Shown here piece by piece: positions 1,188-57,858 of a stretch of 64,000 bases of DNA; position 1 is the first letter of the stretch, and each line of letters begins with the position of its first letter. The notes below the pieces were generated by a model. The model worked only from the letters and a program-made list of their open reading frames with translations, did not search any database and was not told where the DNA came from. Location of the stretch: NCBI GenBank assembly GCA_946186505.1, contig CAMHNI010000001.1, positions 37,416 through 101,415 on the forward strand, read 5' to 3'. Position numbers and translations under genes: made by a program. This DNA is from an uncultured Prevotellaceae bacterium (lineage in GTDB: Bacteria; Bacteroidota; Bacteroidia; Bacteroidales; Bacteroidaceae).

Positions 1188-3185
1188 TTAGTGTCGGTCC
1201 TCGCCTTCGAGGCTGTCATAGATGTCTTTGGGACAGAGTTCGATGTAGTCGATGGACATGTAGAGCGTGCTGCCTTCAAGAATCTGACGGAAGCGCAGCC
1301 AGTAGTCCTGATCGGCACGCATGTACTGCTTCACCAAGATGCGACGTACGTCGTTGCTGTAAGTACGGAACGGCTCTGAGGTGCTGCCATAGCTGTCCAT
1401 GGCCTTCATGAAGCCACGGTTGCGCATGGCCTTGTCGATGGCCTTGTTCTCCTCTTCGTCGTTGGTGTCAGCCTCCCAGCCGATGTTGCTGTCGAAGTTA
1501 CGGAAGCTGATGGGGATGCCGCAAGGCTCGTTGTTCAGATAGACCTGAGCAATACCACGGTCATCGCCGAGTGAGTAACCCAAACGCACCTCGTAGGTAC
1601 CGTCGTGGGGTACAGGGGGCAGTTTCACCGAAGCGTCGAACTTCTCACCAGTGATACAGACACCGCTGCCCTGGTAGTGACGCCAGCCGGTCTGCTCGTT
1701 ACCACAGCCGATGAAGGTTTTGGCGTTGTGCATCTTGAAGTCGGTCAGATAGCCGTTCTTGAAGCCAATCATCATCTCCTCCTTACCCATGTGCTCCATG
1801 CGGGCGTGGCCGTTCATGAAATCAGGGCTGAGGCAGCTGCCGTCAATGCGGATGCGGCGGTTGAGTACCTCTTCGCGTACCTTCTTGGAGTAAACCAGGA
1901 TGTCGTCAATATAGATATATCGGCCATTTTTGCACGACTGCGTGTAGTTGTCGCCCTCGTCATTCTTCAGCACACGCACGCCACGCACCGACGCACTGGA
2001 CTGGAGACCTACACGATTGATGAAAATCTCCTCACCAGGGTTACTGCAGAAGCGGATGAGCGTATGCGGAGCCATGGTCTCGTAGTAGTCCTCTGGGTCG
2101 TAGATCTTGAACAGACACCTTTGCGTATAGATGTCACCCCGACAGTGTACCCAGTAGTCACGGGGTCCCGTGCGGTTGATGAGGTGGTAGCTCACGAAAC
2201 GGTTCAGGGGGTTGTGACGGCTCTTGAAGTCCTCGTCGTACTTGCCGGCATCATCGGGATAGGACTCATCGTAAATCTCCTTGGCATAGGCAATCAGTTC
2301 CTCGATGTTGTTGATGCCGTGGGCACGGTAGATGGAGTCGGTCTCGACAAAGGCCGTAAACTTGAAGAAGCGTTTCTCAGGATACCACGTCTTGCACTGC
2401 TTCGAGGCTGTTCCGTCGTTGGCAGTACCATATGGCACTTTGAAGCCCTTGCCGCCCCAAGCTGAGTCAGGATCGACAGTGTAGGTGTCGTCGTTGTACT
2501 TGGTGAGTGAGTCAGCCATGCCTGTAAGTTTCAGAGCTTGGCTGAAGAGTGAGAGGTTGGGGTTCTCCTCCATAAGGCCGGGAAGAAACTGGTTGCTGGC
2601 CTTGATGACGTGGTCGATGACATGAACCACGCCGTTCGTCACAGAGTCGTCTTTCTGGATGATTCGTGAGTTCTTGTTCACGTAGATGAGCAGCGCGTTG
2701 TTGTTGTAAATGTCGCTGTCGGAAGTCATCTCAATGTAGTCGTCATTCATGTTGACTGGAGGTATCTCGCCGCCCATGTCAGTTGTGAAGTAGGCCTTGT
2801 CCTGTACTATATGTGTACGTGAGAGGGTGTCGCACTGTTCGCGGGGCAGCTCATCGAGTGATGCGTAGCCGTTCTCCTGAAGGTATAGTTGTATAGCCTC
2901 GTTAGTGGGTGCGAAAACGGTGTAGTGGCCGTAGGTTTTCAGAATAGAGAGATAGTTGCTCCGTTCCAGAATGTTCCTGAAGTCACTGAACTGCGCGTCA
3001 TTGGCCTCGATGAAGCCAGCGGCCGTGAGGCGCACTGAAGAGTAGAAGTTCAGCGGAGTATCGCTGTCATCATCGCTACAGGAGGTGAGAGCCCACCCAA
3101 GCCCTCCCAAAGGGAGGGATGTTAATATGCTGGCAAGCCATAAGACACCCGACGTTACCTTTTGTTTCATTGTATGTAATTTCAT
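1188..3185 (-). CDS. Fasciclin (FAS1) domain-containing lipoprotein with a large C-terminal region of unknown function
   Basis: 665-aa ORF with a lipobox (...ALTSCSDDD). FAS1 motifs HYTVFAPTNEAIQLYL and NGVVHVIDHVI are present. The start is ATG at 3185 or 3170. It follows the SusD-like gene. Confidence 0.8.
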   Translation of the reverse strand: MKLHTMKQKVTSGVLWLASILTSLPLGGLGWALTSCSDDDSDTPLNFYSSVRLTAAGFIEANDAQFSDFRNILERSNYLSILKTYGHYTVFAPTNEAIQLYLQENGYASLDELPREQCDTLSRTHIVQDKAYFTTDMGGEIPPVNMNDDYIEMTSDSDIYNNNALLIYVNKNSRIIQKDDSVTNGVVHVIDHVIKASNQFLPGLMEENPNLSLFSQALKLTGMADSLTKYNDDTYTVDPDSAWGGKGFKVPYGTANDGTASKQCKTWYPEKRFFKFTAFVETDSIYRAHGINNIEELIAYAKEIYDESYPDDAGKYDEDFKSRHNPLNRFVSYHLINRTGPRDYWVHCRGDIYTQRCLFKIYDPEDYYETMAPHTLIRFCSNPGEEIFINRVGLQSSASVRGVRVLKNDEGDNYTQSCKNGRYIYIDDILVYSKKVREEVLNRRIRIDGSCLSPDFMNGHARMEHMGKEEMMIGFKNGYLTDFKMHNAKTFIGCGNEQTGWRHYQGSGVCITGEKFDASVKLPPVPHDGTYEVRLGYSLGDDRGIAQVYLNNEPCGIPISFRNFDSNIGWEADTNDEEENKAIDKAMRNRGFMKAMDSYGSTSEPFRTYSNDVRRILVKQYMRADQDYWLRFRQILEGSTLYMSIDYIELCPKDIYDSLEGEDRH
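3091..3119 (-). repeat. GC-rich hairpin plus G-tract mini-element, copy C, in sense orientation and in frame within the signal peptide
   Basis: The minus strand reads tccctccctttgggagggcttgggtgggc. CCCTCCC and GGGAGGG form a 7-bp stem with a ttt loop, followed by GGG T GGG. It encodes SLPLGGLGWA just before the lipobox Cys. Confidence 0.7.
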
Positions 3186-4943: not shown

Positions 4944-4974
4944 AATTACTAATTTCTAATTACTAATTCCTAAT
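4944..4974 (-). repeat. Heptanucleotide tandem repeat that fills the SusC-SusD spacer, about 4.4 copies of AATTAGN
   Basis: The minus strand reads attaggaattagtaattagaaattagtaatt followed directly by ATG at 4943. Confidence 0.8.
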
Positions 4975-8286: not shown

Positions 8287-8317
8287 AATTCTCAATTCTC
8301 AATTCTTAATTCTCAAT
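8287..8317 (-). repeat. Heptanucleotide tandem repeat, about 4.4 copies of AATTGAG/AATTAAG, spanning the upstream gene's stop and the SusC start
   Basis: The minus strand reads attgagaattaagaattgagaattgagaatt followed by ATG at 8286. The TAA stop of the 866-aa gene lies inside the repeat. Confidence 0.8.
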
Positions 8318-11112: not shown

Positions 11113-12027
11113 ATGATAGAGAGACGTGGAGACATCGTCAAGAACTATGTTCGCTTTCTCAAACTGGAACGCAACATGTCACCCAACACACTGGAAGCCT
11201 ACCAGCGTGATTTGGAGAAATTGCTCGCCTTCCTGAAACGGGAAGACAAGGATGTGCTCGATGTCCAATTAGAAGACTTGCAGACATTCGCCGCCGGCCT
11301 GCATGACATAGGCATCGGACCGCGCTCACAGTGCCGCATTTTGAGCGGTGTGCGTTCATTCTACCGGTTCCTGCTCATTGACGGCTACCGCGACAATGAT
11401 CCCACAGAGCTGTTGGAGTCCCCCGCTTTGGGCGAACATCTGCCCGAGGTGCTATCGACCGCCGAGGTTGACCAATTGGAAGCGTCGATAGACCTGTCAA
11501 AATGGGAAGGGCATCGTAACCGCGCCATTATCGAGGTGCTCTTCTCGTGCGGTCTCCGCGTCAGCGAACTAGTAACGCTGCGCCTGTCAAATCTCTACAT
11601 CGAAGAAGGCTTCGTCCGCGTTAATGGCAAGGGTGCTAAGGAACGGCTGGTGCCCATCTCATCCCGTGCCGTCAAGGAACTGGACCTCTGGTTTGACGAC
11701 CGACGTCAAATGTCCATTAAACCAGGGGAGGAGGACTATGTGTTCCTGAACCGACGGGGGGGCCACTTGACGCGCACCATGATTCTAATCATGATCAAAC
11801 AGCAGGCTGAGGCGGCCGGTATCAGCAAGACGATATCGCCCCATACACTGCGTCACTCCTTTGCCACCGCCCTGCTTGAGGGCGGTGCCGACCTGCGAGC
11901 CATCCAGGTCATGCTGGGCCACGAGTCTATTGGCACCACCGAAATCTACACCCACATAGACACAACTACACTGCGCAAGGAAATCTTGGAGCATCACCCG
12001 CGCAACATCGGGTTTTCACAGAAATAG
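11113..12027 (+). CDS. xerD: Site-specific tyrosine recombinase XerD
   Basis: 304 aa with an N-terminal SAM-like domain. The catalytic region reads HTLRHSFATALLEGGADLRAIQVMLGHESIGTTEIYTH, the R..HxxR..Y signature of the Xer family. Confidence 0.85.
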   Translation: MIERRGDIVKNYVRFLKLERNMSPNTLEAYQRDLEKLLAFLKREDKDVLDVQLEDLQTFAAGLHDIGIGPRSQCRILSGVRSFYRFLLIDGYRDNDPTELLESPALGEHLPEVLSTAEVDQLEASIDLSKWEGHRNRAIIEVLFSCGLRVSELVTLRLSNLYIEEGFVRVNGKGAKERLVPISSRAVKELDLWFDDRRQMSIKPGEEDYVFLNRRGGHLTRTMILIMIKQQAEAAGISKTISPHTLRHSFATALLEGGADLRAIQVMLGHESIGTTEIYTHIDTTTLRKEILEHHPRNIGFSQK

Positions 12028-15576: not shown

Positions 15577-18009
15577 TCAATAGATGAAAATCCTGTAGTT
15601 CTTTACACTGCCGGGGGCACCCTGCTCTGCACGAGGTAGATACTCAAGAGCTTTGATGCTCTGCTCTGAGCCAAGGTCGATGACGAGGAGGTGAGGAGCC
15701 AAGGCTCCATTCTCCGTCTGCCAGTAGGTACTCTCTTGCAGGTCGAAGACTTTGTCGCCCAGGTGGTTGCCACCCTCATCCTCAGAGTTGGCGTACTTCG
15801 TTTTCCAAGACTCACGACTGATGCGCTTGCCGTCTTGTCCTTGCAGATAAAGTTCGGCGATAGCCACGCGGTCGCCATCCTTCTGGGTCGAGAGACACTC
15901 AATGGCGAGGTAGCGACCCTTGGCGGTCTTGCCGAAGTTGATGGTCTGCCAGCCGTTGCCAGCCTTGAACGAACCTGTGGCAACGGGCGTTACGCTATTG
16001 AGGTCGGGCTTGTCGCCGATATTGTTGTGTTTGTTCGACTTCTCCAGCTGCAGCTTGTTGAGCTCAGGCTCGGCCTGGCCCCAGACGACACGCTCCTTCG
16101 GACCGACAACATCGAGCACAATAATCTCGTTCTTACCTTTCTTCAGCCAGCAACCGGGCACGTAGAGCGTCTGCTGAGGGCCAATGCTCCAGATGCGGCC
16201 CATAGCGTGGCCGTTTACCCATACCTGTCCCTTGCCCCATGTCTCGAAGTTCAGGAACGTGTCGCCCACCTTCTTCAGGTTGAAGTAGCCGCGGTGATAG
16301 CCGGGTTTCATAAATTCAGCGAGCTTTGCTGATTCTTCGTAATTTCTTGTGACAGCGACACCAGGAACACTGCCTTTCAGTTCTTTGCTATTGAAACCTT
16401 TCACCATATCGAGGGCTTTCTTGGCTGTCTCGTAGTCGTCGGGGATGGCAATGTTTGTCCAGTTCTTCGGCGTCAGCACAATCTCGGCATCGTCTGTTTC
16501 TGTGGTCAGAGTGACATTACCGATGATACCCTTGAAGTCCTTGATGGCACGACCGAAGTTGATACGTCCCATACCTTCTACAAAGATGATTAGGTCGGCC
16601 CCCTTCTTGACGGCCGGTATGCTGAGCGACTTTTCGTTCTTCACGCGGTCGATCTTGCCAATGTATTTGCCATCGATGAACACCTGTGCAAAATCGTGGA
16701 ACTCACCTGTCAGGACGCTGGATGAGGTGATTTCCGGTAGTCGGGTAGAGTAGATCATCGTTCCCCAGCCCATATCCATCTCTTCAAAGGTCTTCAAAGC
16801 GCCAGTTTCTGACTTGCCGCCATTCGGCATAGCTGTCATCAGAGTCGCAAACTCCGTCAGCTCAAACTTAGGCACGGTGATAATAGGCATCGGAGCCTTG
16901 GGTACGGCGGGTAGGCCCCCCTTCCGTCCCCCGAGGGGGAAACCTTTATTGTCATATTTCTCCATCATCTTGCGCAGTTCCCAGAACTTCGGGGTGGCCT
17001 GGCCGTACTCGTTGATGGGGGCATCGTAGTCGTAAGAGGTGACGTCGGGGGCGAAGCCGGGAGAGTTGGCACCAGCCCAGTGGCCAAACGAGGTACCTCC
17101 GTGAGTCATGTAGAGCGAGAAGCTGATGCCCTTCGAGAGCATTTCGTCCATACCCTCGACCATATCCTTGGCGGGACGCGTCTCGTGGCGGGCTCCCCAC
17201 TTGTCGAACCAACCGCTCCAGAACTCAGAGCACATCTTCGGGGCATTTGGACGTAGCTGGCCGAGGCGGCGGAACTGGTCGTCGATGTTGGCACCTGTGC
17301 CGAAGTTCATCGTCCAAGTGAGGTCGTCGAGGCCGTTCTTCTCAAAGTTGCTCGACCAGTCGCACTGGAACAGCGACAGTTCCTTGCCATAGATGCCACG
17401 CAGACAATCCCTGATTTCAGAGACGTATGGCTTATCCTCGCCATACGAACCATACTCGTTCTCCACCTGAATCATAATGATAGGACCACCATTCTGGATG
17501 GTCAGCGGCTTCAGCTGCTCACCCACCTTCTCCTCGAAGATTTTGACACGTTCCATAAAATAAGGATCGCGCTCGCGTAGCTTGATGTCCTTTTTCTTCA
17601 GCAGCCACCAAGGCAGGCCACCCATCTCCCATTCTGCACAGACGTATGGACCGGGACGCACAATGACGTAGAGGCCGTTCTTCTGAGCCAGACGGCAGAA
17701 CTCGGCCACGTCGTTATTACCAGTGAAATCAAAGACACCCTCCTGTTGCTCGTGGATGTTCCAGAAGATGTAGATACACACGGCATTCATACCCAGTGCC
17801 TTACACATCTGGATGCGGTGCTCCCAGTAGGGACGAGGAATGCGGGGGTAATGAACCTCGGCAGCCTTCACGATGAAGGGCTGTCCATTGAGCAGGAAAG
17901 TCTTGTCGCCCGTAGTAAACGTGCTGGGCTTCGATGATGCAGCCATCATCAAGGTTGGCGTAAGGGCAAGAAGAGCTGCAATAGTCAGTTGCTTGAAAGT
18001 GCTGTTCAT
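15577..18009 (-). CDS. Glycoside hydrolase family 35 beta-galactosidase with a C-terminal F5/8 type C (discoidin-like) domain
   Basis: The GH35 N-terminus reads FLLNGQPFIVKAAEVHYPRIPRPYWEHRIQMCKALGMNAV...QVENEYGSYG. A signal peptide starts at MNSTFKQL. The ATG at 18009 is used because the -7 box lies at 18070-18077. Confidence 0.9.
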   Translation of the reverse strand: MNSTFKQLTIAALLALTPTLMMAASSKPSTFTTGDKTFLLNGQPFIVKAAEVHYPRIPRPYWEHRIQMCKALGMNAVCIYIFWNIHEQQEGVFDFTGNNDVAEFCRLAQKNGLYVIVRPGPYVCAEWEMGGLPWWLLKKKDIKLRERDPYFMERVKIFEEKVGEQLKPLTIQNGGPIIMIQVENEYGSYGEDKPYVSEIRDCLRGIYGKELSLFQCDWSSNFEKNGLDDLTWTMNFGTGANIDDQFRRLGQLRPNAPKMCSEFWSGWFDKWGARHETRPAKDMVEGMDEMLSKGISFSLYMTHGGTSFGHWAGANSPGFAPDVTSYDYDAPINEYGQATPKFWELRKMMEKYDNKGFPLGGRKGGLPAVPKAPMPIITVPKFELTEFATLMTAMPNGGKSETGALKTFEEMDMGWGTMIYSTRLPEITSSSVLTGEFHDFAQVFIDGKYIGKIDRVKNEKSLSIPAVKKGADLIIFVEGMGRINFGRAIKDFKGIIGNVTLTTETDDAEIVLTPKNWTNIAIPDDYETAKKALDMVKGFNSKELKGSVPGVAVTRNYEESAKLAEFMKPGYHRGYFNLKKVGDTFLNFETWGKGQVWVNGHAMGRIWSIGPQQTLYVPGCWLKKGKNEIIVLDVVGPKERVVWGQAEPELNKLQLEKSNKHNNIGDKPDLNSVTPVATGSFKAGNGWQTINFGKTAKGRYLAIECLSTQKDGDRVAIAELYLQGQDGKRISRESWKTKYANSEDEGGNHLGDKVFDLQESTYWQTENGALAPHLLVIDLGSEQSIKALEYLPRAEQGAPGSVKNYRIFIY
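16914..16943 (-). repeat. GC-rich hairpin plus G-tract mini-element, copy D, in sense orientation and in frame in the GH35 gene
   Basis: The minus strand reads ggtttccccctcgggggacggaaggggggcc. TCCCC and GGGGA form a stem with a 4-nt loop, followed by a G-rich tail. It encodes FPLGGRKGGL. Confidence 0.55.
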
Positions 18010-18069
18010 ATTGTCGTAGATTTTTATAAAATAGTCTGTGATTGCCTTATTGTTAGTACTTTTGTAGTG

Positions 18070-18077
18070 CAAAGATA
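18070..18077 (-). promoter_or_regulatory. Bacteroidetes -7 promoter box (TATCTTTG) for the GH35 gene
   Basis: TAnnTTTG on the minus strand, about 60 nt upstream of the ATG at 18009. Confidence 0.55.
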
Positions 18078-18151
18078 GTCATTTTTGCATAATTCTACAA
18101 TGTTATAACATTTTTTAAGTTTCCAAATGGTGATTCTTCAAAAAAAAAACT

Positions 18152-18159
18152 TAACTTTG
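18152..18159 (+). promoter_or_regulatory. Bacteroidetes -7 promoter box (TAACTTTG) driving a gene-less transcript
   Basis: TAnnTTTG on the plus strand, preceded by an A10 tract (18140-18149). It is divergent from the GH35 promoter. Confidence 0.5.
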
Positions 18160-18164
18160 CAACC

Positions 18165-18319
18165 GAATTTATGTTGAAAGATTATCTATAGTTTTTTTTG
18201 CCTTGGATGTTTCCAAGGATTAGTGTTAAATGTAAATCCTCCCAATTCCCGTGAGGGAAGTAAGAGAGCCCGAAAAATTGACCATAAACCTTCGGCCGTG
18301 AGGTCCAAGGTTTTTTTTT
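18165..18319 (+). ncRNA. Candidate small RNA of about 150 nt, family unknown
   Basis: A -7 box lies at 18152-18159 and an intrinsic terminator at 18287-18319. Internal hairpins are CCTTGGA tgtt TCCAAGG (18201-18218) and TTCCC GTGA GGGAA (18246-18259). The only ORF is 6 codons long. No plus-strand gene lies downstream. Confidence 0.4.
18287..18319 (+). terminator. Intrinsic terminator of the candidate sRNA
   Basis: The stem is AACCTTcGGCC gtga GGTCcAAGGTT with one C-C mismatch, followed by T9. Confidence 0.7.
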
Positions 18320-24176: not shown

Positions 24177-24230
24177 TGATGCCGTCAGACCATCTCAAAA
24201 AAGTCGGGGAAAAATTCTGTCAATTCAAAA

Positions 24231-24246
24231 TAACTTTGTACCTTTG
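24231..24246 (+). promoter_or_regulatory. Two adjacent -7 boxes (TAACTTTG and TACCTTTG) upstream of the Wza-like gene
   Basis: Both match TAnnTTTG and lie 36-51 nt upstream of the ATG at 24282. Confidence 0.5.
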
Positions 24247-24281
24247 CACCCGAATTGTGATAATGTCCCAAAAAAGGTAAC

Positions 24282-25086: not shown

Positions 25087-27510
25087 ATGGCACAGTCAAG
25101 TAACTCTGAAATTATTAAGCGCGTAAAGACGGATGACTCACTCAGCATCCAGGACATGCTGATGATCTGTCTCCGATATTGGCCCTGGTTCATCCTCTCC
25201 ATTGCCGTTATCATGGGAGCCGTCACACTCTACCTGCTCTCAACGCCGAAAATCTATACCCGAACGGCATCTATTCTGGTCAAGAGCGGCAGTAACAAGC
25301 GTAACAGCGAAATGCGTATGTATGAGGAGTTAGGCGTGGCTAACCTCACCTCCGACATTAACGACGAAGTCGTGGCCATCCACTCGCCTGCAGCGGTCTA
25401 TGACATGGTGAAGCGGCTTCATCTTGATCTCGACTATCATCGCCCCGGCTTCTTCCAGGATGAGACGCTTTTTGCCAACTCGCTTCCTGTAGAAGTGGAA
25501 TTTGAGGACATCAAGGATAATGAAACAGCTACATTCACCCTGAAACTGACGGGAGACGGGAACGTCATCATTTCTGACATGAAATTCCAAGGACGTGAGA
25601 TTTCCGGTAGCCACAAAATGAAATTAGACAGACGATACAAGTCGCCCTTCGGTATTATGAGCATCAAACCGTCTCTCGGCTACAAAGAGGGCCAGAAAGA
25701 CGAGATTCTCGTTACCCGCAACAGTTATTTAGCTGTTGCCGGCAGATATGGCGGACTGATTACGGCTGCTGTACAGTCTAATGCCTACAACATCATCGAC
25801 ATCCGCTGTCAGGATGTCAGCATACCACGTGCCGACAACATCCTCAACACCATTATTAATATATATAATGAGAACTGGGTCAAGAACCGCAACCAGATTA
25901 GCGTAGCTACCAATGAGTTCATCAAGGAGCGTCTGGGGGTCATTGAGCAGGAACTGGGGCATGTGGAAAAGGATATTGCTGACTACAAGAGCGAACGCGC
26001 CATGCCAAGCGTTGATGCTGTGGCTGGCGAGGCCATGGGACAGCGGAGTACTACCGAGGCCCAGAGCCAGCAACTCAACAACCAGCTCTACATGATTAAG
26101 TACGTGCGCAACTATATCTCAGACGACAGTCACGCATCACAGCTGCTCCCTGCCAGTTCGGGTGTCGGTGCCACTGAGGCTCAGATTTCGGAGTACAACA
26201 ACAAGTTGCTGCAGCGCAACAATCTCGTAGCCAACTCCAGCGAGCAGAACCCGCTGGTACAGGATATGGACATCGCTTTGAAAAACATGCGCAGTGCCAT
26301 CGTCAACTCACTCGACAACGAGCAGGCTACCATCAACATCCAGTTGCGCAATGTGCAGGCCGTCCACGGACAGGCCATAGCCAAGTTGGCCGCCAACCCG
26401 AGGCAGGCCAACGACCTGCTCAGCATCGAGCGCCAGCAGAAGGTGAAGGAGAGCCTCTACCTCTTCCTGCTCCAGAAGCGCGAGGAAAACGAACTGAGCC
26501 AGGCGTTCACCGCCTACAACACCCGTATCATTGCCAACCCCTACGGCAGTAGTGTGCCTACATCGCCCGAACGCAACAAGATACTGCTCATGGCTTTCGG
26601 ACTGTCCCTGGCTCTGCCCGCCACATTCTTCATACTGCGCGAAATCAGCAAATCCAAGGTGCGTGGCCGCAAAGACCTGGAAGGGCTGTCCCTGCCTTAC
26701 GTTGGCGAACTGCCCCTGTGGAAGCCCAAGAAGGGTGAAGAGGCGCCTAAAGGCTATCACTTCGTCGTCAAGCACCACAAGCGCGACCTCGTCAACGAGG
26801 CCTTCCGTGTTGTACGTACCAACCTCGAGTTCATGGCCAACCCCGACAAGAAGTGCAAGCTCATCATGCTCACATCGTTCAATCCGGGGTCTGGTAAGAC
26901 CTTCATCTGTGCCAATATCGGCGCATCGTTCAGCATTCGCGGCAGCCGTGTGCTCTGCATAGACCTTGACCTGCGCCGCGCCTCACTGTCTGAGTTGGTC
27001 GATTCGCCCAAAAAGGGTATCGTCGATTACCTTGGCGGTCATGTCGATGACTACCATTCTCTCATTATAAAGAATGAGGAGACCGGCCTTGACTTCCTGC
27101 CCGTGGGCAAGATACCGCCCAACCCCACCGAGTTGCTCTATTCACCAAAGTTCAAACCCATGCTCGACCAGCTGCGCCAGGAGTACGACTACGTGTTTGT
27201 TGACTGTCCGCCCGTCGAGATTGTGGCTGATGCCACAATTATCAGCCATGAGTCCGACATCACACTCTTTGTTATCCGCGCCGGTATGCTTGAACGTAAC
27301 ATGTTGCCCGAGCTTGAGAGGAATTACGAAGAGAAGAGGTACAACAACATGGCTATGATTCTCAACGGTACCGATGCCAGCCGAGGCTATGGCTACCACC
27401 GCTACGGCTACGGCTACGGGCGCTATGGCTATGGCTACGGACACTATGGCAACCGCTACGGTTACAGCTACTACGGCGGCAGTAAGAAGAGTAAGAAGAG
27501 CAAGGATTAA
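25087..27510 (+). CDS. Polysaccharide co-polymerase / tyrosine autokinase (Wzc-like)
   Basis: 807 aa. It has a Wzz-type N-terminal TM and coiled-coil region. The C-terminal kinase has a Walker A (SFNPGSGKTF) and a terminal Tyr cluster (GYGYHRYGYGYGRYGYGYGHYGNRYGYSYYGG). Confidence 0.9.
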   Translation: MAQSSNSEIIKRVKTDDSLSIQDMLMICLRYWPWFILSIAVIMGAVTLYLLSTPKIYTRTASILVKSGSNKRNSEMRMYEELGVANLTSDINDEVVAIHSPAAVYDMVKRLHLDLDYHRPGFFQDETLFANSLPVEVEFEDIKDNETATFTLKLTGDGNVIISDMKFQGREISGSHKMKLDRRYKSPFGIMSIKPSLGYKEGQKDEILVTRNSYLAVAGRYGGLITAAVQSNAYNIIDIRCQDVSIPRADNILNTIINIYNENWVKNRNQISVATNEFIKERLGVIEQELGHVEKDIADYKSERAMPSVDAVAGEAMGQRSTTEAQSQQLNNQLYMIKYVRNYISDDSHASQLLPASSGVGATEAQISEYNNKLLQRNNLVANSSEQNPLVQDMDIALKNMRSAIVNSLDNEQATINIQLRNVQAVHGQAIAKLAANPRQANDLLSIERQQKVKESLYLFLLQKREENELSQAFTAYNTRIIANPYGSSVPTSPERNKILLMAFGLSLALPATFFILREISKSKVRGRKDLEGLSLPYVGELPLWKPKKGEEAPKGYHFVVKHHKRDLVNEAFRVVRTNLEFMANPDKKCKLIMLTSFNPGSGKTFICANIGASFSIRGSRVLCIDLDLRRASLSELVDSPKKGIVDYLGGHVDDYHSLIIKNEETGLDFLPVGKIPPNPTELLYSPKFKPMLDQLRQEYDYVFVDCPPVEIVADATIISHESDITLFVIRAGMLERNMLPELERNYEEKRYNNMAMILNGTDASRGYGYHRYGYGYGRYGYGYGHYGNRYGYSYYGGSKKSKKSKD

Positions 27511-28245: not shown

Positions 28246-28342
28246 CCGCCGACATCTCGAATAACGAGCCTTCCATGAATGGAAAATGAGGGGCAGTTTT
28301 CACTTTTTTGCCCTTCAAAACAGATAATTCGGAATTTTTTTA

Positions 28343-28350
28343 TAAGTTTG
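28343..28350 (+). promoter_or_regulatory. Bacteroidetes -7 promoter box (TAAGTTTG)
   Basis: TAnnTTTG lies inside the N-terminal extension of the ORF-track model and 36 nt upstream of the ATG at 28386. This supports the shorter start. Confidence 0.5.
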
Positions 28351-28385
28351 CAGCTGAAATACGCAAAGACCTAAAACTGTATTAT

Positions 28386-34832: not shown

Positions 34833-34934
34833 AAAACAAAAAAATATATACTTGCATGCGCGCCAGTTCTGTATCTAAAGTCATGTGGAAGTCATTTTTC
34901 CCCTTTTTCATTTTGTGGTTTCAGAACTTCTTTG

Positions 34935-34942
34935 TACCTTTG
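34935..34942 (+). promoter_or_regulatory. Bacteroidetes -7 promoter box (TACCTTTG) for the FAH-family gene
   Basis: TAnnTTTG about 77 nt upstream of the ATG at 35019. Confidence 0.5.
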
Positions 34943-35018
34943 CCACATAATTAAGGCAAAATCAGAAGGAATGGCAACAATAGCATTTCTGCCCAAAGTG
35001 TAGCCGACGAAAAGCGTT

Positions 35019-42986: not shown

Positions 42987-43184
42987 ATGCCTACAGTACT
43001 CTCATACCTGCATTACCAGGACGTGACAGCCGCCTATCGATACCGCACAGACTCGCTGCTCACTCGCGACGTGATGAAGACGATGCCCCAAGACACCTTG
43101 CGGCAGATGACGCAACAGAAGAAATCCATCATACAGCAATACATGCAACGTATGAATAATGACAAGTTGGTGGTTGGAGATTGA
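42987..43184 (+). CDS. Small hypothetical protein (65 aa)
   Basis: An ATG-initiated ORF sits directly behind a -7 box and leads into the ABC transporter gene. The sequence is polar with no recognisable motif. Confidence 0.4.
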   Translation: MPTVLSYLHYQDVTAAYRYRTDSLLTRDVMKTMPQDTLRQMTQQKKSIIQQYMQRMNNDKLVVGD

Positions 43185-43226
43185 AGGTTGAAGGTTGAGA
43201 ATTGAAAATTGAAGATTGAGAATTGA
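43172..43226 (+). repeat. Heptanucleotide tandem repeat, about 8 copies of RRTTGAR, ending at the start codon of the ABC transporter
   Basis: The sequence is ggttgga gattgaa ggttgaa ggttgag aattgaa aattgaa gattgag aattga followed by ATG at 43227. It overlaps the stop of the 65-aa ORF. Confidence 0.85.
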
Positions 43227-48582: not shown

Positions 48583-49418
48583 GACTACATAACGAAACCA
48601 ACTACGACATCCGCATCCTGCAACGGAAGATTATCGGCAATCTGGAGGCCATCGATGCCGTCTGCCGCGAACACGGCCTGCGCTATTATCTCTGGGCAGG
48701 CACGATGCTCGGTGCCGTACGCCACAAAGGGTTTATCCCTTGGGACGACGATATGGACATCTGTATGCCGCGACCCGACTACGAGCAACTCATCAGTCAC
48801 TGGCGCGAATGGCTGCCTCAGCCCTACGAGGTGATTGCTCCGGAGACCGATCCTACCTACCCTTATCCATTCGCCAAGATTGAGGATGCCTCGACAACGG
48901 TGCTTGAGCGCCCCGACTTCAAGTTTCTTGAAGGTGTCTATATCGATGTGTTCCCTATTGACGGAGCGCCAGCCGATGAGCAGGAGCGTAAGTCTCACTT
49001 CAAGCGCTATAAGTTCTGGCGGCATCTGCTGTTCCTCCGTGGGCGCGACCCCTTCAAGCACGGCCATGGTCCCCGCTCGTGGTTCCCGTGGCTGCTGCAT
49101 CGGGTCTATTCGCTCGAGAGTCTGCAGCAAAAGGTCAAGCGGTTTATGACGAAATATCCCTACGACGAGTCCGACTACGTCTGCGACTACGACGACGGTC
49201 TGCGGGGCGTTATCGAGAAGCGCATCCTCGGCACGCCGCAAGTCTATCCCTTCGAGGACAGGCAGTTCCTCGGTGTGGAGCACTACGATGAATACCTCTC
49301 CAACAAGTACGGCGACTACATGCAGTTGCCCCCGAAGGAGAAACAGATTCAGCACCACTTCTTCCGTTTAGACCTGAACCGTCCGTATAAACAGACCACT
49401 ATCGAGGATATCCTATGA
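48579..49418 (+). CDS. LicD family phosphotransferase (phosphocholine / phospho-alcohol transfer to glycans)
   Basis: The protein begins MRLHNETNY... and contains GLRYYLWAGTMLGAVRHKGFIPWDDDMDI (the LicD DxD motif). I trimmed the start to the ATG at 48579, which overlaps the previous stop as ATGA. Confidence 0.8.
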   Translation: MRLHNETNYDIRILQRKIIGNLEAIDAVCREHGLRYYLWAGTMLGAVRHKGFIPWDDDMDICMPRPDYEQLISHWREWLPQPYEVIAPETDPTYPYPFAKIEDASTTVLERPDFKFLEGVYIDVFPIDGAPADEQERKSHFKRYKFWRHLLFLRGRDPFKHGHGPRSWFPWLLHRVYSLESLQQKVKRFMTKYPYDESDYVCDYDDGLRGVIEKRILGTPQVYPFEDRQFLGVEHYDEYLSNKYGDYMQLPPKEKQIQHHFFRLDLNRPYKQTTIEDIL

Positions 49419-50431
49419 AGATACTCGTTGTCCGCTTCCGTCAGATGGGCGATGCCATTCTGGCCACACCCCTGCTCAGTACCCTGCACCGCAGCTTTCC
49501 TGACGCAGAGATTCACTTCGTGCTCAACGAGCGGATAGCCCCACTCTTTGAAGGTCATCCTGCCATTAGCCGCATCATCACCTTTAGCGATGCGGAGCGT
49601 CACGCCCCGATGACTTATCTCAGAAAGGTATGGCAGACGGTGCATCAGACACGCTACGATGCCATCATCGACATGCGTTCTACGCTGAACACGATGCCCT
49701 TCGCCCTCTTCTCGTTGCACAGCAGATGGCGCATCGGCATCCGGAAGCCCTACACCTTCGGCATCTATAACCACCGCATAGAGGGCTGTGAGGACGATGA
49801 AAGTATGATTACCCACAACCTGAAGTTGGCAGAACCCTTGAAGCCCACGGTCACTGACCGTAACCTCACGCTCAGCATCACGGAGAAGGAGAAGGCCGAC
49901 TTCCGTGCCTATATGCAGCACGAAGGCATCGACTTCAGCCGTCCTGTCCTGCTCGTGGGTGTAACGGCGAAACTCGAAAGCAAGACGTGGGCCGAAGACC
50001 GTATGACAGAGACCTTGCGCCGTCTGCTCGACGCCTTCCCCCACCTGCAGCTCATCTTCAACTACGCCCCGGGACGTGAGGCCGAGAATGCCCGTCGTAT
50101 CTACTCATTTCTTTCTCCGCATTCCTCCCTCCCTACAGGGGAGGGTCGGGGTGGGGCTTCAATCTTCCTCAACATCAACGCCAAGTCACCACGTGAGTTA
50201 GCCGCTATGGCCGCCAACTGCACAGCCTACTTCGGCAATGAGGGAGGCGGTCGTCACATCGTCCACGCTATGGGCAAGCCCTCACTCGTGGTCTGCTCTC
50301 CTATGGCCAGCAAGACCACATGGCTGCCGCAGGACACCGATGTCCTGGCCTGGGGCATCGATGCCAACAACGCTACTGTAGAAGAAGTATGGAGTCTGTT
50401 ACTTGCCTTCTGCAAGGAGCTGGCGATATAG
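49415..50431 (+). CDS. Glycosyltransferase family 9 (LPS heptosyltransferase-like)
   Basis: 338 aa: MKILVVRFRQMGDAILATPL... (GT9 N-terminus) and ...YFGNEGGGRHI... It contains the in-frame GC-rich mini-element. Confidence 0.8.
   Translation: MKILVVRFRQMGDAILATPLLSTLHRSFPDAEIHFVLNERIAPLFEGHPAISRIITFSDAERHAPMTYLRKVWQTVHQTRYDAIIDMRSTLNTMPFALFSLHSRWRIGIRKPYTFGIYNHRIEGCEDDESMITHNLKLAEPLKPTVTDRNLTLSITEKEKADFRAYMQHEGIDFSRPVLLVGVTAKLESKTWAEDRMTETLRRLLDAFPHLQLIFNYAPGREAENARRIYSFLSPHSSLPTGEGRGGASIFLNINAKSPRELAAMAANCTAYFGNEGGGRHIVHAMGKPSLVVCSPMASKTTWLPQDTDVLAWGIDANNATVEEVWSLLLAFCKELAI
50123..50159 (+). repeat. GC-rich hairpin plus G-tract mini-element, copy A, in sense orientation and in frame in the GT9 gene
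   Basis: The sequence is tcctccctccctacaggggagggtcggggtggggctt. CCCTCCC and GGGAGGG form the stem. The G tracts run GGGG A GGG TC GGGG T GGGG. It encodes SLPTGEGRGGA. Confidence 0.8.
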
Positions 50432-51457
50432 GCGGATGTACGCTTCCGTGTAAGACTGATAGTTGAATCCCTGAGAATGTTCCAAGGCTGCCGTAGCCTC
50501 CGGACCATCCTTCTGCCAGGCGGCAATGCCCTCGCGCACCACGGTGGCCATAGCAGCAGGCTCGTAATCATCCCAATAGGTGGCGTGACTGCTGCATACC
50601 TCCGGCAGACTGCTGAAGCGCGAAGAAAAAACCTTGCAGCGGTAGCGCATGGCCTCGAGCACAGGAATGCCGAAGCCCTCCAAACGACTCGGAAAGAGGA
50701 AAGCCTCCGCATGACTGTAGAGCCAGCGCTTCTCCTCGTCGCTGATCTTTCCCGTCAGCACAACTCGTCCTTCGCCCTCTGCCTCAATCAGCTTCCGTAG
50801 CTCCTGGGCAAAGGCAAAATGGTCGTCGCCACAGATGTAGAGCCTGTAGTCGGGCAAGTGCTTCATCATGGGCACCAGCGTCTGGAAATTCTTCTTCTCA
50901 CGAATCTGTCCGATGGTGAAGAAGAACGGCTTGTCATTGACGATAATGGCCGGACATTGCTGAGGCCCATCCTCATGGCTGGCAATGCCGTTGTATATCA
51001 CGTCGAGTGCTTTATTGCCAATATGGTAATGGGCCAAGATGTCATCCTTCACATACTGCGAGATACACGTCAGGTGGTCGCTGCGCCGCATGCGCCATTT
51101 CAGCTGAATGATATGCCGCCAACGGTGCAGGCCGCTCTTCTCGCGCAGGAAGTTCAGGTCGTGAACCGTCAACAGCTGGATGGTCTTGCTGTCGCCGCCC
51201 CGCAGATGGAACTGCTGGTCGGTGGCGTGCCAAAGGTCTATATGGCATGTCAGCTGCCTCAGGTCTTCGCGCTTCCTGCTTCGGCGGATATAGTCGATAT
51301 GAGGACCGAAGGTTCCCACCAAATGGTCGGGCACGACAAAGATCAAGTGCATATCGTCCAACTGTGCCTTGGCCAGCAGCGGCGCATAGTTTCGGGCAAT
51401 CTCGCCGAAGCCATTCATATCCGCCAGATGCGAAAAGTCAACTACTACGTTCTTCAT
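50399..51457 (-). CDS. Glycosyltransferase family 4 (GT1-type fold)
   Basis: The protein begins MKNVVVDFSHL... and contains the EX7E-type C-terminal motif ...FPSRLEGFGIPVLEAM... The ATG at 51457 is preferred to the TTG at 51469. Its 3' end overlaps the convergent GT9 gene by 33 nt. Confidence 0.85.
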   Translation of the reverse strand: MKNVVVDFSHLADMNGFGEIARNYAPLLAKAQLDDMHLIFVVPDHLVGTFGPHIDYIRRSRKREDLRQLTCHIDLWHATDQQFHLRGGDSKTIQLLTVHDLNFLREKSGLHRWRHIIQLKWRMRRSDHLTCISQYVKDDILAHYHIGNKALDVIYNGIASHEDGPQQCPAIIVNDKPFFFTIGQIREKKNFQTLVPMMKHLPDYRLYICGDDHFAFAQELRKLIEAEGEGRVVLTGKISDEEKRWLYSHAEAFLFPSRLEGFGIPVLEAMRYRCKVFSSRFSSLPEVCSSHATYWDDYEPAAMATVVREGIAAWQKDGPEATAALEHSQGFNYQSYTEAYIRLYRQLLAEGK

Positions 51458-51465
51458 CCTTCTTC

Positions 51466-52305
51466 TCAAATTTCTCCCTCCCTACAGGGGAGGGCCGGGG
51501 TGGGGCTTTTATAAGGCTTGTCGAAGTCCAGCACGTGGAAGTTGTGCTGCCGCTGGTGGTCACCGTCGGGAATCACCATGTAGTCGCCGTATTTTCGTGT
51601 GAGATAGGTGTCGGCCTGTTCTACGCCCAACACCTGCTCTCCCTCGAAGGGGTAGGGCTGCGGAGTTCCGAGTATTTCGGGCGACATGGTACCTCGCTGG
51701 CCGTCGTCATAGTCGGCCACCAGCGCCGACTTTTCGTAGTCGTAGGCCAGCAACAGGCGGCGTATCTTCTGCTGTACGCCTGCCAGCGTGTAAAGCCGCC
51801 GACAGAGCAGCGGCACCCACGACGAAGGGCCGTGGCCGTGCTTGTAAGGGTCGCGGTGCAGCAGATAGAGCACCCGCTTCAGGTATTCGTAATGGGCGAA
51901 GTGCAATCGGCGGCGCCAGCTCGAGGCCGGCACACCGTCGATGGGGAACACGTCGATATAGATGCCGCCGAGGTAGCGTAGGTGGAGTCGCTCAATGAGC
52001 GTTGTCGAGGCATCCTGTACCTTACCGAACGGCAGTGGGTAGGCCGCGTCGTTCTCTGCACAGACAAACTCGAAGGGCTGCTGAAGCCACTCTCGGCTAT
52101 GGGCGATGAACTGCTCGTAGTCAGGCCGTGGCATGGCAATGTCAATGTCGTCATCCCAGGGAATAAACCCCTGATGACGCACGGCGCCTAACTGAGTGCC
52201 CGCCCAGATGTAGTACCGCAGCCCGTGCTCACGACAACAGCTGTCCACAGCCAATAGGATGCGGAGAATGCGCTGATGAAGCTGGTTGACGTCGTAGTTT
52301 GCCAT
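51466..52305 (-). CDS. LicD family phosphotransferase, second paralogue
   Basis: The protein begins MANYDVNQL... and contains GLRYYIWAGTQLGAVRHQGFIPWDDDIDI. I trimmed the start to the ATG at 52305 because the -7 box lies at 52327-52334. The last 13 codons are encoded by the antisense of mini-element copy B. Confidence 0.8.
   Translation of the reverse strand: MANYDVNQLHQRILRILLAVDSCCREHGLRYYIWAGTQLGAVRHQGFIPWDDDIDIAMPRPDYEQFIAHSREWLQQPFEFVCAENDAAYPLPFGKVQDASTTLIERLHLRYLGGIYIDVFPIDGVPASSWRRRLHFAHYEYLKRVLYLLHRDPYKHGHGPSSWVPLLCRRLYTLAGVQQKIRRLLLAYDYEKSALVADYDDGQRGTMSPEILGTPQPYPFEGEQVLGVEQADTYLTRKYGDYMVIPDGDHQRQHNFHVLDFDKPYKSPTPALPCREGEI
51475..51508 (+). repeat. GC-rich hairpin plus G-tract mini-element, copy B. 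It is antisense to the genes and sits at the LicD2 / GT4 junction.
   Basis: The sequence is tccctccctacaggggagggccggggtggggctt, which matches copy A at 33 of 34 positions. Confidence 0.8.
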
Positions 52306-52326
52306 AGCTTTTCCCGTATTTTTGTG

Positions 52327-52334
52327 CAAAGATA
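52327..52334 (-). promoter_or_regulatory. Bacteroidetes -7 promoter box (TATCTTTG) for LicD2/GT4
   Basis: TAnnTTTG on the minus strand, 22 nt upstream of the ATG at 52305. Confidence 0.5.
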
Positions 52335-56074: not shown

Positions 56075-56137
56075 TACGGGGAAAACATGAGAAAGGTGCC
56101 ATCTAAAGGCTAAAGTAGACCGTGCAAAAGTTAAAAC

Positions 56138-56209
56138 GGCGACAATGGATGATAAAACAATGCCAATGGATAATAAAACAGCGACATTGGATGATAAAAC
56201 GGTGACGCC
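56138..56209 (+). repeat. 21-bp tandem repeat, about 3.4 copies, upstream of an ECF sigma factor gene
   Basis: The units are ggcgacaatggatgataaaac / aatgccaatggataataaaac / agcgacattggatgataaaac / ggtgacgcc... Confidence 0.85.
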
Positions 56210-56826: not shown

Positions 56827-57858
56827 ATGAACGACATCAAAAACGACAAGAACCTGCGCGAGGCTGTCAGCCGACGGGAGCAACAGTTGCCGCCCATACC
56901 TGATGACCTGAATGAAAGGGTGATGAAGAGCCTTGTGGAGCCTGAGACGGCTCCAAAGTCTCGCCGACTGTGGGTCTATGCAGCCGTAGCCGCTGCCGCC
57001 AGCATCGCCCTGCTGATAGTTTTTAACTGGGGCAAGCAGCAGAGCCCGCAGGAGCCCGTCGTGGCACAACAGAGTCCGCGACACGAAGTCAGCCCAGTCA
57101 GCCCAGCCAGCGCAACCATCGTCCAACCAGAGGTCGTGCCCGACGAGCAGCCAGAGGAAAAACCCGTATCGGCACTCAGCGAGGATGCGCCTCAGCAGGC
57201 AGAGCCGGCATCTACGGAGGATGTCAGCCCCCACCAATCTCCCCTCGAAGAAGAGGCTCCCCCTCTTTGGGAGGGGGCGGGGGGGGAGACCGAGCCCTTC
57301 TTCATTGCCTCCACATCGTATATGGTCACGCACAGGAACTACAGAGGCAGCCTCGCCACGTCGGAATCTGAGGAAGGCTCTGCAATCCAAATGTCGACGA
57401 AAACGGTATCACAGAACCGCCCCCAGAGGCCCCAGATTCCCCTTCGTAAGCTGACGAAGAAGGAAAGGGAACAGGCAGCTGTGCTCGGTGCCATTGCCAC
57501 GAAGCGGTGGCATATCGATATCACTTCGATGAACACCCTGCGCTATGGGTCGCGAGCAGTGACGTCTGACTTCTATCTCGAACTGCGAGGCGACACACTG
57601 CGTAGCTACCTGCCCTATCTCGGTGATGCCCATATACCGACGATGTCGCCGTCGATAGGCCTGAACTTCGAGGAGCCTGTGCTGACCTACAAGGAGAGCA
57701 AGCCGAAGAAGTACACACAGATTGACATCGACGTGAGGACCCGTGAGGACTCCTACCACTATGTGGTTGAAATATACGACAATGGTCAGGCGTATATCCG
57801 TGTACGATCGATGAACCGCGACCCCATCAGCTTCGACGGCACATTGGAAATCGAATAA
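56827..57858 (+). CDS. Putative anti-sigma-like membrane protein with a low-complexity linker and a C-terminal DUF4251-like domain
   Basis: 343 aa, starting 4 nt after the sigma gene. It has a short cytoplasmic N-terminus, one TM helix (LWVYAAVAAAASIALLIVF), a Pro/Glu/Ser-rich linker, and a C-terminal beta-rich domain. Confidence 0.55.
   Translation: MNDIKNDKNLREAVSRREQQLPPIPDDLNERVMKSLVEPETAPKSRRLWVYAAVAAAASIALLIVFNWGKQQSPQEPVVAQQSPRHEVSPVSPASATIVQPEVVPDEQPEEKPVSALSEDAPQQAEPASTEDVSPHQSPLEEEAPPLWEGAGGETEPFFIASTSYMVTHRNYRGSLATSESEEGSAIQMSTKTVSQNRPQRPQIPLRKLTKKEREQAAVLGAIATKRWHIDITSMNTLRYGSRAVTSDFYLELRGDTLRSYLPYLGDAHIPTMSPSIGLNFEEPVLTYKESKPKKYTQIDIDVRTREDSYHYVVEIYDNGQAYIRVRSMNRDPISFDGTLEIE
57257..57288 (+). 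repeat. GC-rich hairpin plus G-tract mini-element, copy E, in sense orientation and in frame in the anti-sigma-like gene. It contains a G8 run.
   Basis: The sequence is ctccccctctttgggagggggcggggggggag. CCCCCTC and GAGGGGG form the stem, followed by C G8. It encodes PPLWEGAGGE. Confidence 0.65.

Follow-up and report, generated by a model that had tools for sequence, protein, structure and literature searches.

INTRODUCTION

BoxC elements, also called PIT elements, are repeats that were reportedly described in Escherichia coli and other Proteobacteria by Bachellier in the 1990s and by Hoyne and Maher in 2000 and 2002. Here, we analyze five short repeats (copies A through E) in a 64,000-nucleotide (nt) stretch of DNA from an uncultured Prevotellaceae bacterium (GenBank assembly GCA_946186505.1, contig CAMHNI010000001.1, positions 37,416 to 101,415 of the forward strand; the whole stretch is hereafter called “the window”). 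We argue that these repeats probably belong to the same structural class, the class II triplex motifs, in a form with short stems, and that they are carried as in-frame insertions in genes.

A catalogue of triplex motifs covers 5246 genomes and plasmids of prokaryotes (Holder et al. 2015, PMC4666352). In the definition used there, a class II motif (class II ITxF) consists of a 5′ pyrimidine arm and a complementary purine arm, which form a stem of 6-15 nt with loops of 1-6 nt. The third block is compatible with antiparallel binding, i.e., G stands opposite G-C pairs and A or T opposite A-T pairs, and it is therefore a mirror repeat (PMC4666352). The BoxC/PIT element of Hoyne and Maher is the motif TM_ECO of that catalogue, written as CCCTCNCCC N3-6 GGGNGAGGG N3 GGGNGAGGG. 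Its 23 copies in E. coli MG1655 are always intergenic, show no strand bias, have no promoter or terminator activity, and are associated with local sequence variability. As a single strand, TM_ECO forms a triplex according to circular dichroism and nuclear magnetic resonance (NMR), and a G-quadruplex (G4) was explicitly excluded (PMC4666352).

Repeats with similar core words have been described in archaea. In Methanomicrobiaceae, G-rich repeats beside a C3TC3 track interconvert between hairpin, antiparallel triplex, and G4 in vitro (2021, PMC8044849). They share with the window copies the combination of C3TC3 and G3AG3-type runs and an unbiased strand relative to genes, but their C-rich track lies 3′ of the G runs (class I order) rather than 5′, their hosts are archaea, and all of them are intergenic. 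A different point of comparison is provided by the Rickettsia palindromic elements (Ogata et al. 2000), which resemble MITEs (miniature transposable elements with inverted repeats), measure ~100-150 bp, and encode conserved peptides specific to each family (PMC10969869).

Triplex motifs from Bacteroidota, or from inside genes, are absent from both PMC4666352 and PMC8044849, and our text searches of the literature found none. An earlier reading of the window, made from its letters alone (the sequence-only reading), had pointed out the five repeats and knew of no equivalent described for Bacteroidales. That statement needs to be divided: the element as such falls in the BoxC/PIT/TM class, whereas intragenic copies in Bacteroidota were indeed not found in the literature searched.

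RESULTS

The five window copies share a three-block design with a mirror third block

Direct reading confirmed the five sequences at 50123-50159 (A), 51475-51508 (B), 3091-3119 on the minus strand (C), 16914-16943 on the minus strand (D), and 57257-57288 (E). In each, 6-8 nt of pure C/T sequence form an arm that is perfectly complemented; the first loop measures 2-5 nt and the linker 3-4 nt, and in five of five the third block is a full-length mirror match (Table 1). Copies D (GGGGGA-cgga-AGGGGG) and E (GAGGGGG-cggg-GGGGGAG) are asymmetric, hence informative, and both follow the mirror rule. The match of 33 of 34 positions reported earlier for A and B is contained in a longer direct repeat of 39 nt (50121-50159 and 51470-51508; 37/39 identical), the two units of which lie 1349 nt apart.

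That the five form one family of short structured repeats, as the sequence-only reading had it, was borne out by a strict detector that asks for a pure C/T arm, a perfect hairpin, and a mirror third block. Applied to the window, this detector returned five sites, exactly A through E, compared with none in 100 dinucleotide-preserving shuffles; a relaxed version found a mean of 0.05 motifs per shuffle of the same kind. Copy D is the weakest member, with a stem of 6 bp and a 2-nt loop, or of 4 bp and a 4-nt loop, and the perfect hairpins of at least 7 bp with a pure C/T 5′ arm in the whole window are four only, namely A, B, C, and E. No Rfam family matched the window at the gathering threshold, nor the interval 50000-51650 at E-values up to 1. 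The observation is thereby confirmed as real and non-random.

The same design extends beyond the window. A scan of one genome per species with the pattern CCCTCCC N3-5 GGGAGGG N1-4 GGGKGGG gave at least 119 stretches, and the taxa among the matches listed include Prevotellaceae, other Bacteroidota, Sphingomonadales, Paenibacillus, Chloroflexi, and others. We did not use these cross-phylum matches as evidence of homology, since the scan pattern itself fixed the stems. The mirror rule was instead evaluated on asymmetric hairpins in the scanned loci, none of which overlaps the scan pattern. The downstream block is a mirror only in 46 of these, a direct copy only in 2, and both in 4. In such unselected elements, the 3′ block mirrors the purine arm (for example, GGGGGAG-tta-GAGGGGG); it does not repeat that arm directly, nor is it the Watson-Crick complement of the C arm. 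Across 205 motifs, first loops of 3 or 5 nt and linkers of 3 nt predominate.

The order of pyrimidine arm, loop, purine arm, linker, and mirror G/T(A) block points to the class II purine-motif intrastrand triplex design, and copies A through E carry all of its sequence features (arms, stem, loops, and mirror block). Based on sequence comparison, we therefore consider that A through E are short-stem class II triplex motifs present as in-frame insertions in genes, with a probability of roughly 0.78.

Comparison with TM_ECO/BoxC shows the same class II order of blocks (a pyrimidine arm, a 3-6-nt loop, a purine arm, a short linker, and a mirror G/T block), the same G/C richness, an occurrence as singles and close inverted pairs, and a copy number that differs among relatives. 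In both systems, the sequence around the copies is locally variable, and neither the function nor the copying mechanism is known. However, the stems here measure 6-9 nt (CCCTCCC or C5-6 types) against the 9-nt CCCTCNCCC, and the host phylum, Bacteroidota, is unmentioned in PMC4666352. Furthermore, TM_ECO is intergenic in MG1655, whereas all five window copies are located in open reading frames (ORFs), and further Prevotella genes (GltB, GT9, and DegT) have multiple inserts each. No sequence of the window fits the strict TM_ECO pattern, and one match is present in 127 loci (L034, Ottowia). Filing A through E as BoxC sensu stricto was accordingly rejected, since the strict pattern is unmatched and the copies are not intergenic.

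Table 1. Positions of the five repeats and their host genes in the window, and of the DUF559 cassettes in other loci (coordinates of the locus named)
Feature	Position	Strand	Description	Blocks or evidence
Copy A	50121..50159	+	Putative class II triplex motif; flanks ATTCCT and GCTT	Y arm 50127-50133 CCCTCCC; loop 50134-50138 TACAG; R arm 50139-50145 GGGAGGG; linker 50146-50148 TCG; third block 50149-50155 GGGTGGG
Copy B	51470..51508	+	Subtype as A	Y arm 51476-51482; loop 51483-51487; R arm 51488-51494; linker 51495-51497 CCG; third block 51498-51504
Copy C	3091..3122	-	Core 3092-3118	CAT-CCCTCCC-TTT-GGGAGGG-CTT-GGGTGGG-CT
Copy D	16914..16943	-	Asymmetric motif; core 16917-16940	TCCCCC-TC-GGGGGA-CGGA-AGGGGG
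Copy E	57257..57288	+	Asymmetric motif	Y arm 57259-57265 CCCCCTC; loop 57266-57270 TTTGG; R arm 57271-57277 GAGGGGG; linker 57278-57281 CGGG; third block 57282-57288 GGGGGAG
Host of A	49415..50431	+	GT9 (glycosyltransferase family 9)	Pfam PF01075
Host of B	51466..52329	-	LicD-family protein	Pfam PF04991; translation
Host of C	1188..3185	-	Fasciclin-domain lipoprotein	Pfam PF02469; translation
Host of D	15577..18072	-	GH35 beta-galactosidase	Pfam PF01301
Host of E	56827..57858	+	Membrane-anchored DUF4251 protein	Pfam PF14059
DUF559 cassette, L126	10380-12209		In frame inside DegT aminotransferase gene	
DUF559 cassette, L098	4658-7651	-	In frame inside Lhr helicase of Mucilaginibacter, between DEAD and Helicase_C domains	
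DUF559 cassette, L063	830-1340		Intergenic, Prevotellaceae genome	Two loops are reverse complements of each other
DUF559 cassette, L238	1362-1991		Motif doublets on both sides	DUF559-centred search of viral contigs
DUF559 cassette, L246	1322-1896		Motif doublets on both sides	DUF559-centred search of viral contigs

The copies lie in coding frames at tolerant sites, and A and D are lineage-specific insertions

Pfam supports the products of all the ORFs in which the five window copies are found. Copy A encodes residues 237-249 of the GT9 protein (SSLPTGEGRGGAS), C encodes SLPLGGLGWA, which falls within the hydrophobic core of the signal peptide of the lipoprotein, D encodes FPLGGRKGG in the linker after the GH35 catalytic domain, and E encodes PPLWEGAGGE in a linker of the DUF4251 protein. 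The earlier claim that these four lie in frame and in sense orientation holds in each ORF, with the peptides as they had been quoted. The accompanying count of four copies in genes out of five was too low. Copy B belongs to a gene as well: its antisense reading ends the LicD ORF (51466-52329) with 13 codons (SPTPALPCREGEI) and a stop.

For copy A, an empty site is available. Apart from a 99% identical one, the nearest GT9 homologues (85-87% amino acid identity) have 327 residues compared with 338 here, and the difference falls exactly at SSLPTGEGRGG. Compared with the syntenic contig L001, the window carries a 39-nt insert (50123-50161) between CCGCAT and ATCTTCC, with no target-site duplication at the junctions. 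In this comparison, the 18-24 nt directly upstream of A are diverged and 6 nt shorter. In the AF2 model of the GT9 protein (mean pLDDT, 83), the insert is placed in a loop between a helix and a strand, and the sole segment with pLDDT below 50, residues 240-246, lies inside it.

At the site of copy B, the LicD gene of L001 closes with another tail, 8 codons long, and its stop overlaps the start of the following gene (ATGA), whereas the window has 14 codons, 13 of them motif-encoded, followed by the stop and an 8-nt spacer. Relative to L001, the flanks beside A and B are diverged or contain indels. From 45.3 to 52.3 kb of the window, identity to L001 is otherwise uniform (~0.8-0.9) and gene order is equal, which rules out A and B as recombination break points or as ends of an inserted segment and indicates that each is a point event. 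Other indels along this stretch are unrelated simple repeats; L001 has unrelated simple repeats at 9975-10000 and ~11560-11600 (CTGTAAA-type and CTCCTGA/TCTCCTG-type), with none at the window counterpart.

In most GH35 homologues, the site of copy D reads ..KYND-GKK-MPAVPK... The D insert is shared by homologues P0152 and P0207, is decayed in P0121, and corresponds to a 7-residue gap in the alignment with the PDB entries 6eon and 3d3a. Still other homologues carry a different motif-like insert in the same linker.

Copies C and E have relatives at the same position. A decayed copy of C is present in homologue P0269 (75% identity), and the C subtype was found again in L022, L090 (twice), L063, L069, and L070. 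An empty site could not be defined for C, because the signal peptides of homologues are too variable to align. Copy E is kept in homologues at 90% and 69% amino acid identity. In the latter (L223), where a sigma-70 family gene lies upstream of the DUF4251 gene, the motif DNA is identical except for one linker base, with flanks that are ~85% identical, and an additional motif cluster, absent from the window, is found ~130 nt upstream. In L224 (560-900), 70 nt are deleted between two CCTC microhomologies relative to the window (57170-57265); one end of this deletion lies inside the pyrimidine arm of E, and the DUF4251 gene is split into ORFs of 185 and 125 amino acids. This split may be a real pseudogene or an assembly error. 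At 57278-57286, copy E also contains a G8 run within the ORF, next to a C5 run elsewhere in the element; homopolymers of this type can slip and cause frameshifts.

Altogether, comparison with orthologues supports the view that at least A, with its empty site, and D, with GKK in most homologues, are lineage-specific insertions. The suggestion that the segments of 10-12 amino acids are lineage-specific thus stands for these two copies and does not for C and E, both of which are common to relatives. The insertions are lineage-specific, stop-free, and a multiple of three in length, and they occupy sites that tolerate 8-13 extra Gly/Pro-rich residues, i.e., a surface loop, inter-domain linkers, a signal-peptide core, and a C-terminal tail.

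Motifs are depleted inside genes, unbiased in orientation, and clustered

We next consider the family at large. A motif was counted as well inside an ORF when it lay at least 30 codons within an ORF of at least 150 codons. In Prevotellaceae loci, this applies to 20% of 59 motifs, compared with 76% for control positions, and the sense-to-antisense ratio is 7:5. The corresponding values are 50% of 24 motifs versus 77% (7:5) in other Bacteroidales, 31% of 111 versus 74% (14:20) in other genomes, and 27% of 187 versus 69% (22:28) in viral contigs. Over all 381 motifs, the depletion inside genes relative to control positions is approximately threefold.

The motifs well inside ORFs comprise 50 in sense and 58 in antisense orientation, i.e., there is no bias. 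Therefore, the 4:1 sense ratio of the window and the presence of all five copies in ORFs are small-sample features. The sequence-only reading had expected further copies together with a preference for the sense orientation: copies were found at many loci, but the orientation bias is gone in this larger sample and the motifs are depleted in genes.

Motifs are also clustered, with at least two in 48 of 120 loci, and 45 of 71 neighbouring pairs lie within 150 nt of each other, often inverted. The densest coding examples are single genes with several copies. In Prevotella sp. RGIG1522 from rumen (L071, 3-3695, minus strand), the glutamate synthase large subunit (GltB) contains at least five motif-derived in-frame inserts in both orientations, which read SPSLGEGLGWA in sense and TPLPHREG, LTPDPSRRGEG, and THPQPLPGREG in antisense. 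Aligned with Bacillus subtilis GltA (7mfm), four of these inserts fall in gaps and one in an unaligned stretch between aligned domains. Similarly, a GT9 homologue in L127 has a tandem run of three units in antisense, and a further loop holds a single sense unit.

Outside ORFs, we observed C-subtype motifs that end 5-7 nt upstream of an ATG, which is where a ribosome-binding site would be expected, in other Prevotella genomes (L090 3806-3948, L070 6076-6102, and L069 1896-1922); the genes that follow include an rnfA-like gene and acetate kinase, among others. At L090, a diverging motif pair lies at two divergent genes. In an unclassified bacterium (L021, 124-758), five identical motifs are arranged with a period of 152 nt.

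Some motif pairs flank a DUF559 nuclease gene

A DUF559 gene or domain lies between a minus-strand motif on its left and a plus-strand motif on its right in five loci (L063, L126, L098, L238, and L246; Table 1). The left end of the cassette in L126 is the reverse complement of a motif that differs by one loop base from window copy B, and its right end is of the A/B subtype. L126 contains at least six A/B-type copies in 12.4 kb, which are 90-97% identical over 32-40 nt to the window, and one match of 55 nt across a tandem pair reaches 84%. Its DNA similarity to the window is limited to these A/B-type copies.

An exact 30-mer scan of the metagenome collection for the A/B subtype gave only four stretches, two of which are the window's own locus, with one of the others in L126, and we dropped the idea of a high-copy element for this reason. 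Since L126 alone has at least six slightly different A/B copies by BLAST, the exact-pattern count underestimates the family.

A related arrangement is present in E. coli K-12. TM_ECO no. 9 (1351204-1351239) lies 168 nt downstream of ycjD, which is annotated as DUF559, on the same strand, and between the two is a fragment of a second DUF559 3′ end (ETVLENIRQGLNR...; L225, MG1655 1351204-1351760). By a rough estimate, the chance that any of the 23 TM_ECO motifs would be so close to one given gene is ~0.4%. In the same locus, we noted that the C-terminus of ycjD (...RRSPSP*) is encoded by a decayed motif arm.

These observations raise the tentative proposal that the motifs may be terminal inverted repeats, with the third blocks outermost, of a selfish cassette that encodes a DUF559 (Vsr-like, PD-(D/E)XK) nuclease. 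Inverted pairs would then be derivatives without an ORF, and solo copies such as A through E would be remnants or single ends, in parallel to REP/REPIN repeats and their RAYT transposases. The proposal concerns how the motifs spread and is compatible with their identity as triplex motifs. In its favor are the five loci with inverted motifs around DUF559, the near identity of the L126 ends to window copies in otherwise dissimilar DNA, and the proximity of TM_ECO no. 9 to ycjD. In addition, a homing endonuclease is known within the VSR/DUF559 group of PD-(D/E)XK nucleases (PMC3424549).

However, of 80 viral loci centred on DUF559, only 3 by the strict and 5 by the relaxed criterion have motifs nearby, and DUF559 was found in only 3 of ~215 motif-centred loci and nowhere in the window; there is no target-site duplication, and DUF559 genes could equally insert into pre-existing motif pairs. 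The low ratios agree with a model of few autonomous and many non-autonomous elements, and they agree equally with DUF559 targeting pre-existing motif pairs. A role of DUF559 as a general neighbour of the motifs is unsupported: most DUF559 genes of viral contigs have no nearby motif, and only a subset can be concerned. None of the papers that our literature search found to mention DUF559 connects it with triplex repeats.

Like the REP/REPIN and RAYT system, the present one has short structured high-copy repeats that occur as singlets and inverted doublets, and, provided that the DUF559 link is real, one or a few protein genes that lie between such repeats. It differs in the third mirror block and in the flanked gene, which encodes a PD-(D/E)XK (DUF559) nuclease and not an HUH Y1 transposase, and REPs are extragenic. 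It is conceivable, though in our view doubtful, that BoxC/PIT elements and their Prevotella variants are altogether the cis ends of a widespread selfish element, the autonomous form of which encodes a DUF559 endonuclease. Under such a selfish-element view, the cassette may insert in frame into conserved genes (Lhr helicase and DegT aminotransferase), the motifs may serve as flexible Gly/Pro linkers, and A through E may be non-autonomous descendants.

G4 potential is a by-product of symmetric subtypes

The sequence-only reading had drawn attention to a G4 pattern in A, B, C, and E, and these are in fact the only four canonical G4 motifs on either strand of the 64 kb. According to ViennaRNA with G4 energies (RNA), the G4 is predicted at -22.8 kcal/mol for B and C and at -23.2 kcal/mol for A, and a mixed fold at -35.9 kcal/mol for E; the hairpin alternative of these four copies lies at -14 to -19 kcal/mol, so that the G4 is preferred. 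No such preference is predicted for D. As DNA, the hairpins have modest energies (-7 to -8 kcal/mol; z-scores, ~-1.5).

Based on these folds, the motifs could act in messenger RNA as a switch, in which the sense transcript would alternate between two folds, a 7-bp hairpin and a G4 of three layers, and thereby modulate translation or stability. The predicted energies and the hairpin/triplex/G4 equilibrium of the similar archaeal repeats in vitro (PMC8044849) are consistent with this idea, as is the coincidence of the window's G4 motifs with four of the five copies. However, D has no G4 potential, and a G4 motif (four runs of at least three G, 1-7 nt apart) is present in 22 of 61 unselected members (36%), whereas all 61 keep the mirror rule. 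Since 39 of 61 members lack a G4 and yet keep the rule, the mirror rule is the family-wide constraint. A switch that acts on the sense transcript is further disfavored by the unbiased orientation in ORFs, by the mostly intergenic position of the copies, by B being antisense to LicD, and by the exclusion of G4 by NMR on TM_ECO (PMC4666352), which together render it improbable. The earlier suggestion of two alternative folds therefore survives as a prediction for the RNA of A, B, C, and E and fails as a defining property of the family.

Compared with canonical G4 motifs, A, B, C, and E fit G3+ N1-7 repeated four times, but their G runs are tied to a complementary C arm and to mirror symmetry, and a three-layer G4 is out of reach for D and for 64% of unselected relatives. 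On these grounds, we discarded G4 potential as the property that defines the family; it is a by-product in the symmetric G3-N-G3 subtypes.

Transposase-mobilized repeats and ancestral coding sequence fit the data poorly

The behaviour of the copies had also been likened to that of the Rickettsia palindromic elements, and this comparison is a fair one. In both cases, palindromic units are found in frame in unrelated genes, at sites that are structurally tolerated and compatible with the fold, and are translated as extra peptides. A closer relationship, in which the motifs would be REP/RAYT- or MITE-type transposable elements and true analogues of the Rickettsia elements moved by a transposase, could draw on the presence/absence polymorphism at A and D, on conserved-loop subtypes at many loci in several species, and on the frequency of inverted pairs. 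It is nevertheless very improbable. MITEs and Rickettsia palindromic elements are characterized by ~50-500 bp, terminal inverted repeats, and target-site duplication, whereas the units here are far smaller (27-39 nt), lack terminal inverted repeats within a single unit, and show no duplication at the site of A. Unlike the Rickettsia elements, they follow the three-block triplex rule, occur in both orientations, and are mostly intergenic. The GTAG/CGTC tag that would adjoin a REP hairpin is absent from the flanks ATTCCT/ATTTCT (A, B), ACAT (C), GGTT (D), and GGCT (E), as read directly.

That Gly/Pro-rich loops merely happen to be GC-rich palindromes, by chance or as ancestral low-complexity coding sequence, is scarcely credible: E and C are common to homologues at 69-75% amino acid identity, as ancestry would have it, but motifs occur in 0 of 100 shuffles, A has an empty site, the mirror rule holds by 46 to 2, identical motifs are found between genes and in unrelated genes, and antisense copies give another peptide family (TPLPHREG) from the same DNA.

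Other repeats in the window

The window contains further repeats of other kinds. An AT-rich repeat (...GGTAATCATAATT(ATCAATT)n) is found at 1148-1186, 4930-4968, and 8273-8311, at the 5′ ends of three consecutive large minus-strand ORFs (1188-3185, 4975-8295, and 8306-10906), and an inverted copy at 43179-43226 precedes the ORF that starts at 43227. A 43-nt upstream motif ending in ..TTTG..ACCTTTGCA..AATT occurs at 18127-18169, 24214-24256, 28318-28360, and 34910-34952; we take it to resemble the Bacteroidota promoter consensus. Finally, 21-nt tandem repeats of three units each lie at 27385-27461, where they encode Gly-Tyr repeats at the C-terminus of the ORF 25087-27510, and at 56132-56200, upstream of a sigma-factor-like ORF.

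DISCUSSION

The three-block mirror design, the in-frame and lineage-specific location at tolerant sites, the occurrence in both orientations, the depletion in genes, the clustering, the decay in relatives, and the indels at the edges of copies are established. We interpret A through E as short-stem class II triplex motifs, and several points weigh against this interpretation. The stems of the window copies are of 7 nt, whereas the in vitro proof of a triplex is for the 9-nt stem of TM_ECO; moreover, dimethyl sulfate footprinting detected no TM_ECO triplex in vivo, and duplex DNA did not form one either (Holder et al. 2015, PMC4666352). Outside the window, ORF context was judged by stop-to-stop ORFs and not by annotation. 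Because E and a decayed C are common to homologues at 69-75% amino acid identity, insertion at these two sites is deduced from family membership. In addition, E is better conserved than its flanks in L223, which pure neutrality does not predict.

In the mechanism that we propose for triplex motifs of this kind, the hairpin would form when the G-rich strand becomes single-stranded, and the third block would dock in the major groove as an antiparallel reverse-Hoogsteen strand through G·G-C and T/A·A-T triplets, a folding shown in vitro only for TM_ECO. Polymerases would stall at this structure, and template switching or microhomology repair would then produce local copies as well as deletions. 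New copies would mostly arise nearby, either as tandem or inverted neighbours or 1-2 kb off, and now and then at distant sites. Selection would purge intragenic copies unless they are in frame, stop-free, and at a tolerated site, and the surviving copies would be inherited and slowly decay. The elements would be selfish or neutral, without a dedicated host function, and their main effect would be higher local indel and divergence rates. As to the copying step, the candidates that we prefer are structure-induced template switching in replication or repair and mobilization by a motif-flanked DUF559 endonuclease.

BoxC/PIT motifs are abundant in many bacteria and linked to genome instability, and their function and spread have been unexplained since their description in the 1990s. 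Our results would extend the triplex-motif class to Bacteroidota, in a short-stem form, and, contrary to the picture from E. coli, the motifs here are found inside genes and are translated either way. Intragenic motifs would thus be a source of variation in loops, linkers, and tails, and of frameshifts and deletions, in gut and rumen Prevotella. In practice, annotation and assembly are affected by the spurious “hypothetical” peptides and the homopolymer-prone sites to which the motifs give rise. The DUF559 link, if true, would explain the origin of these repeats and give a function to a large uncharacterized nuclease family.

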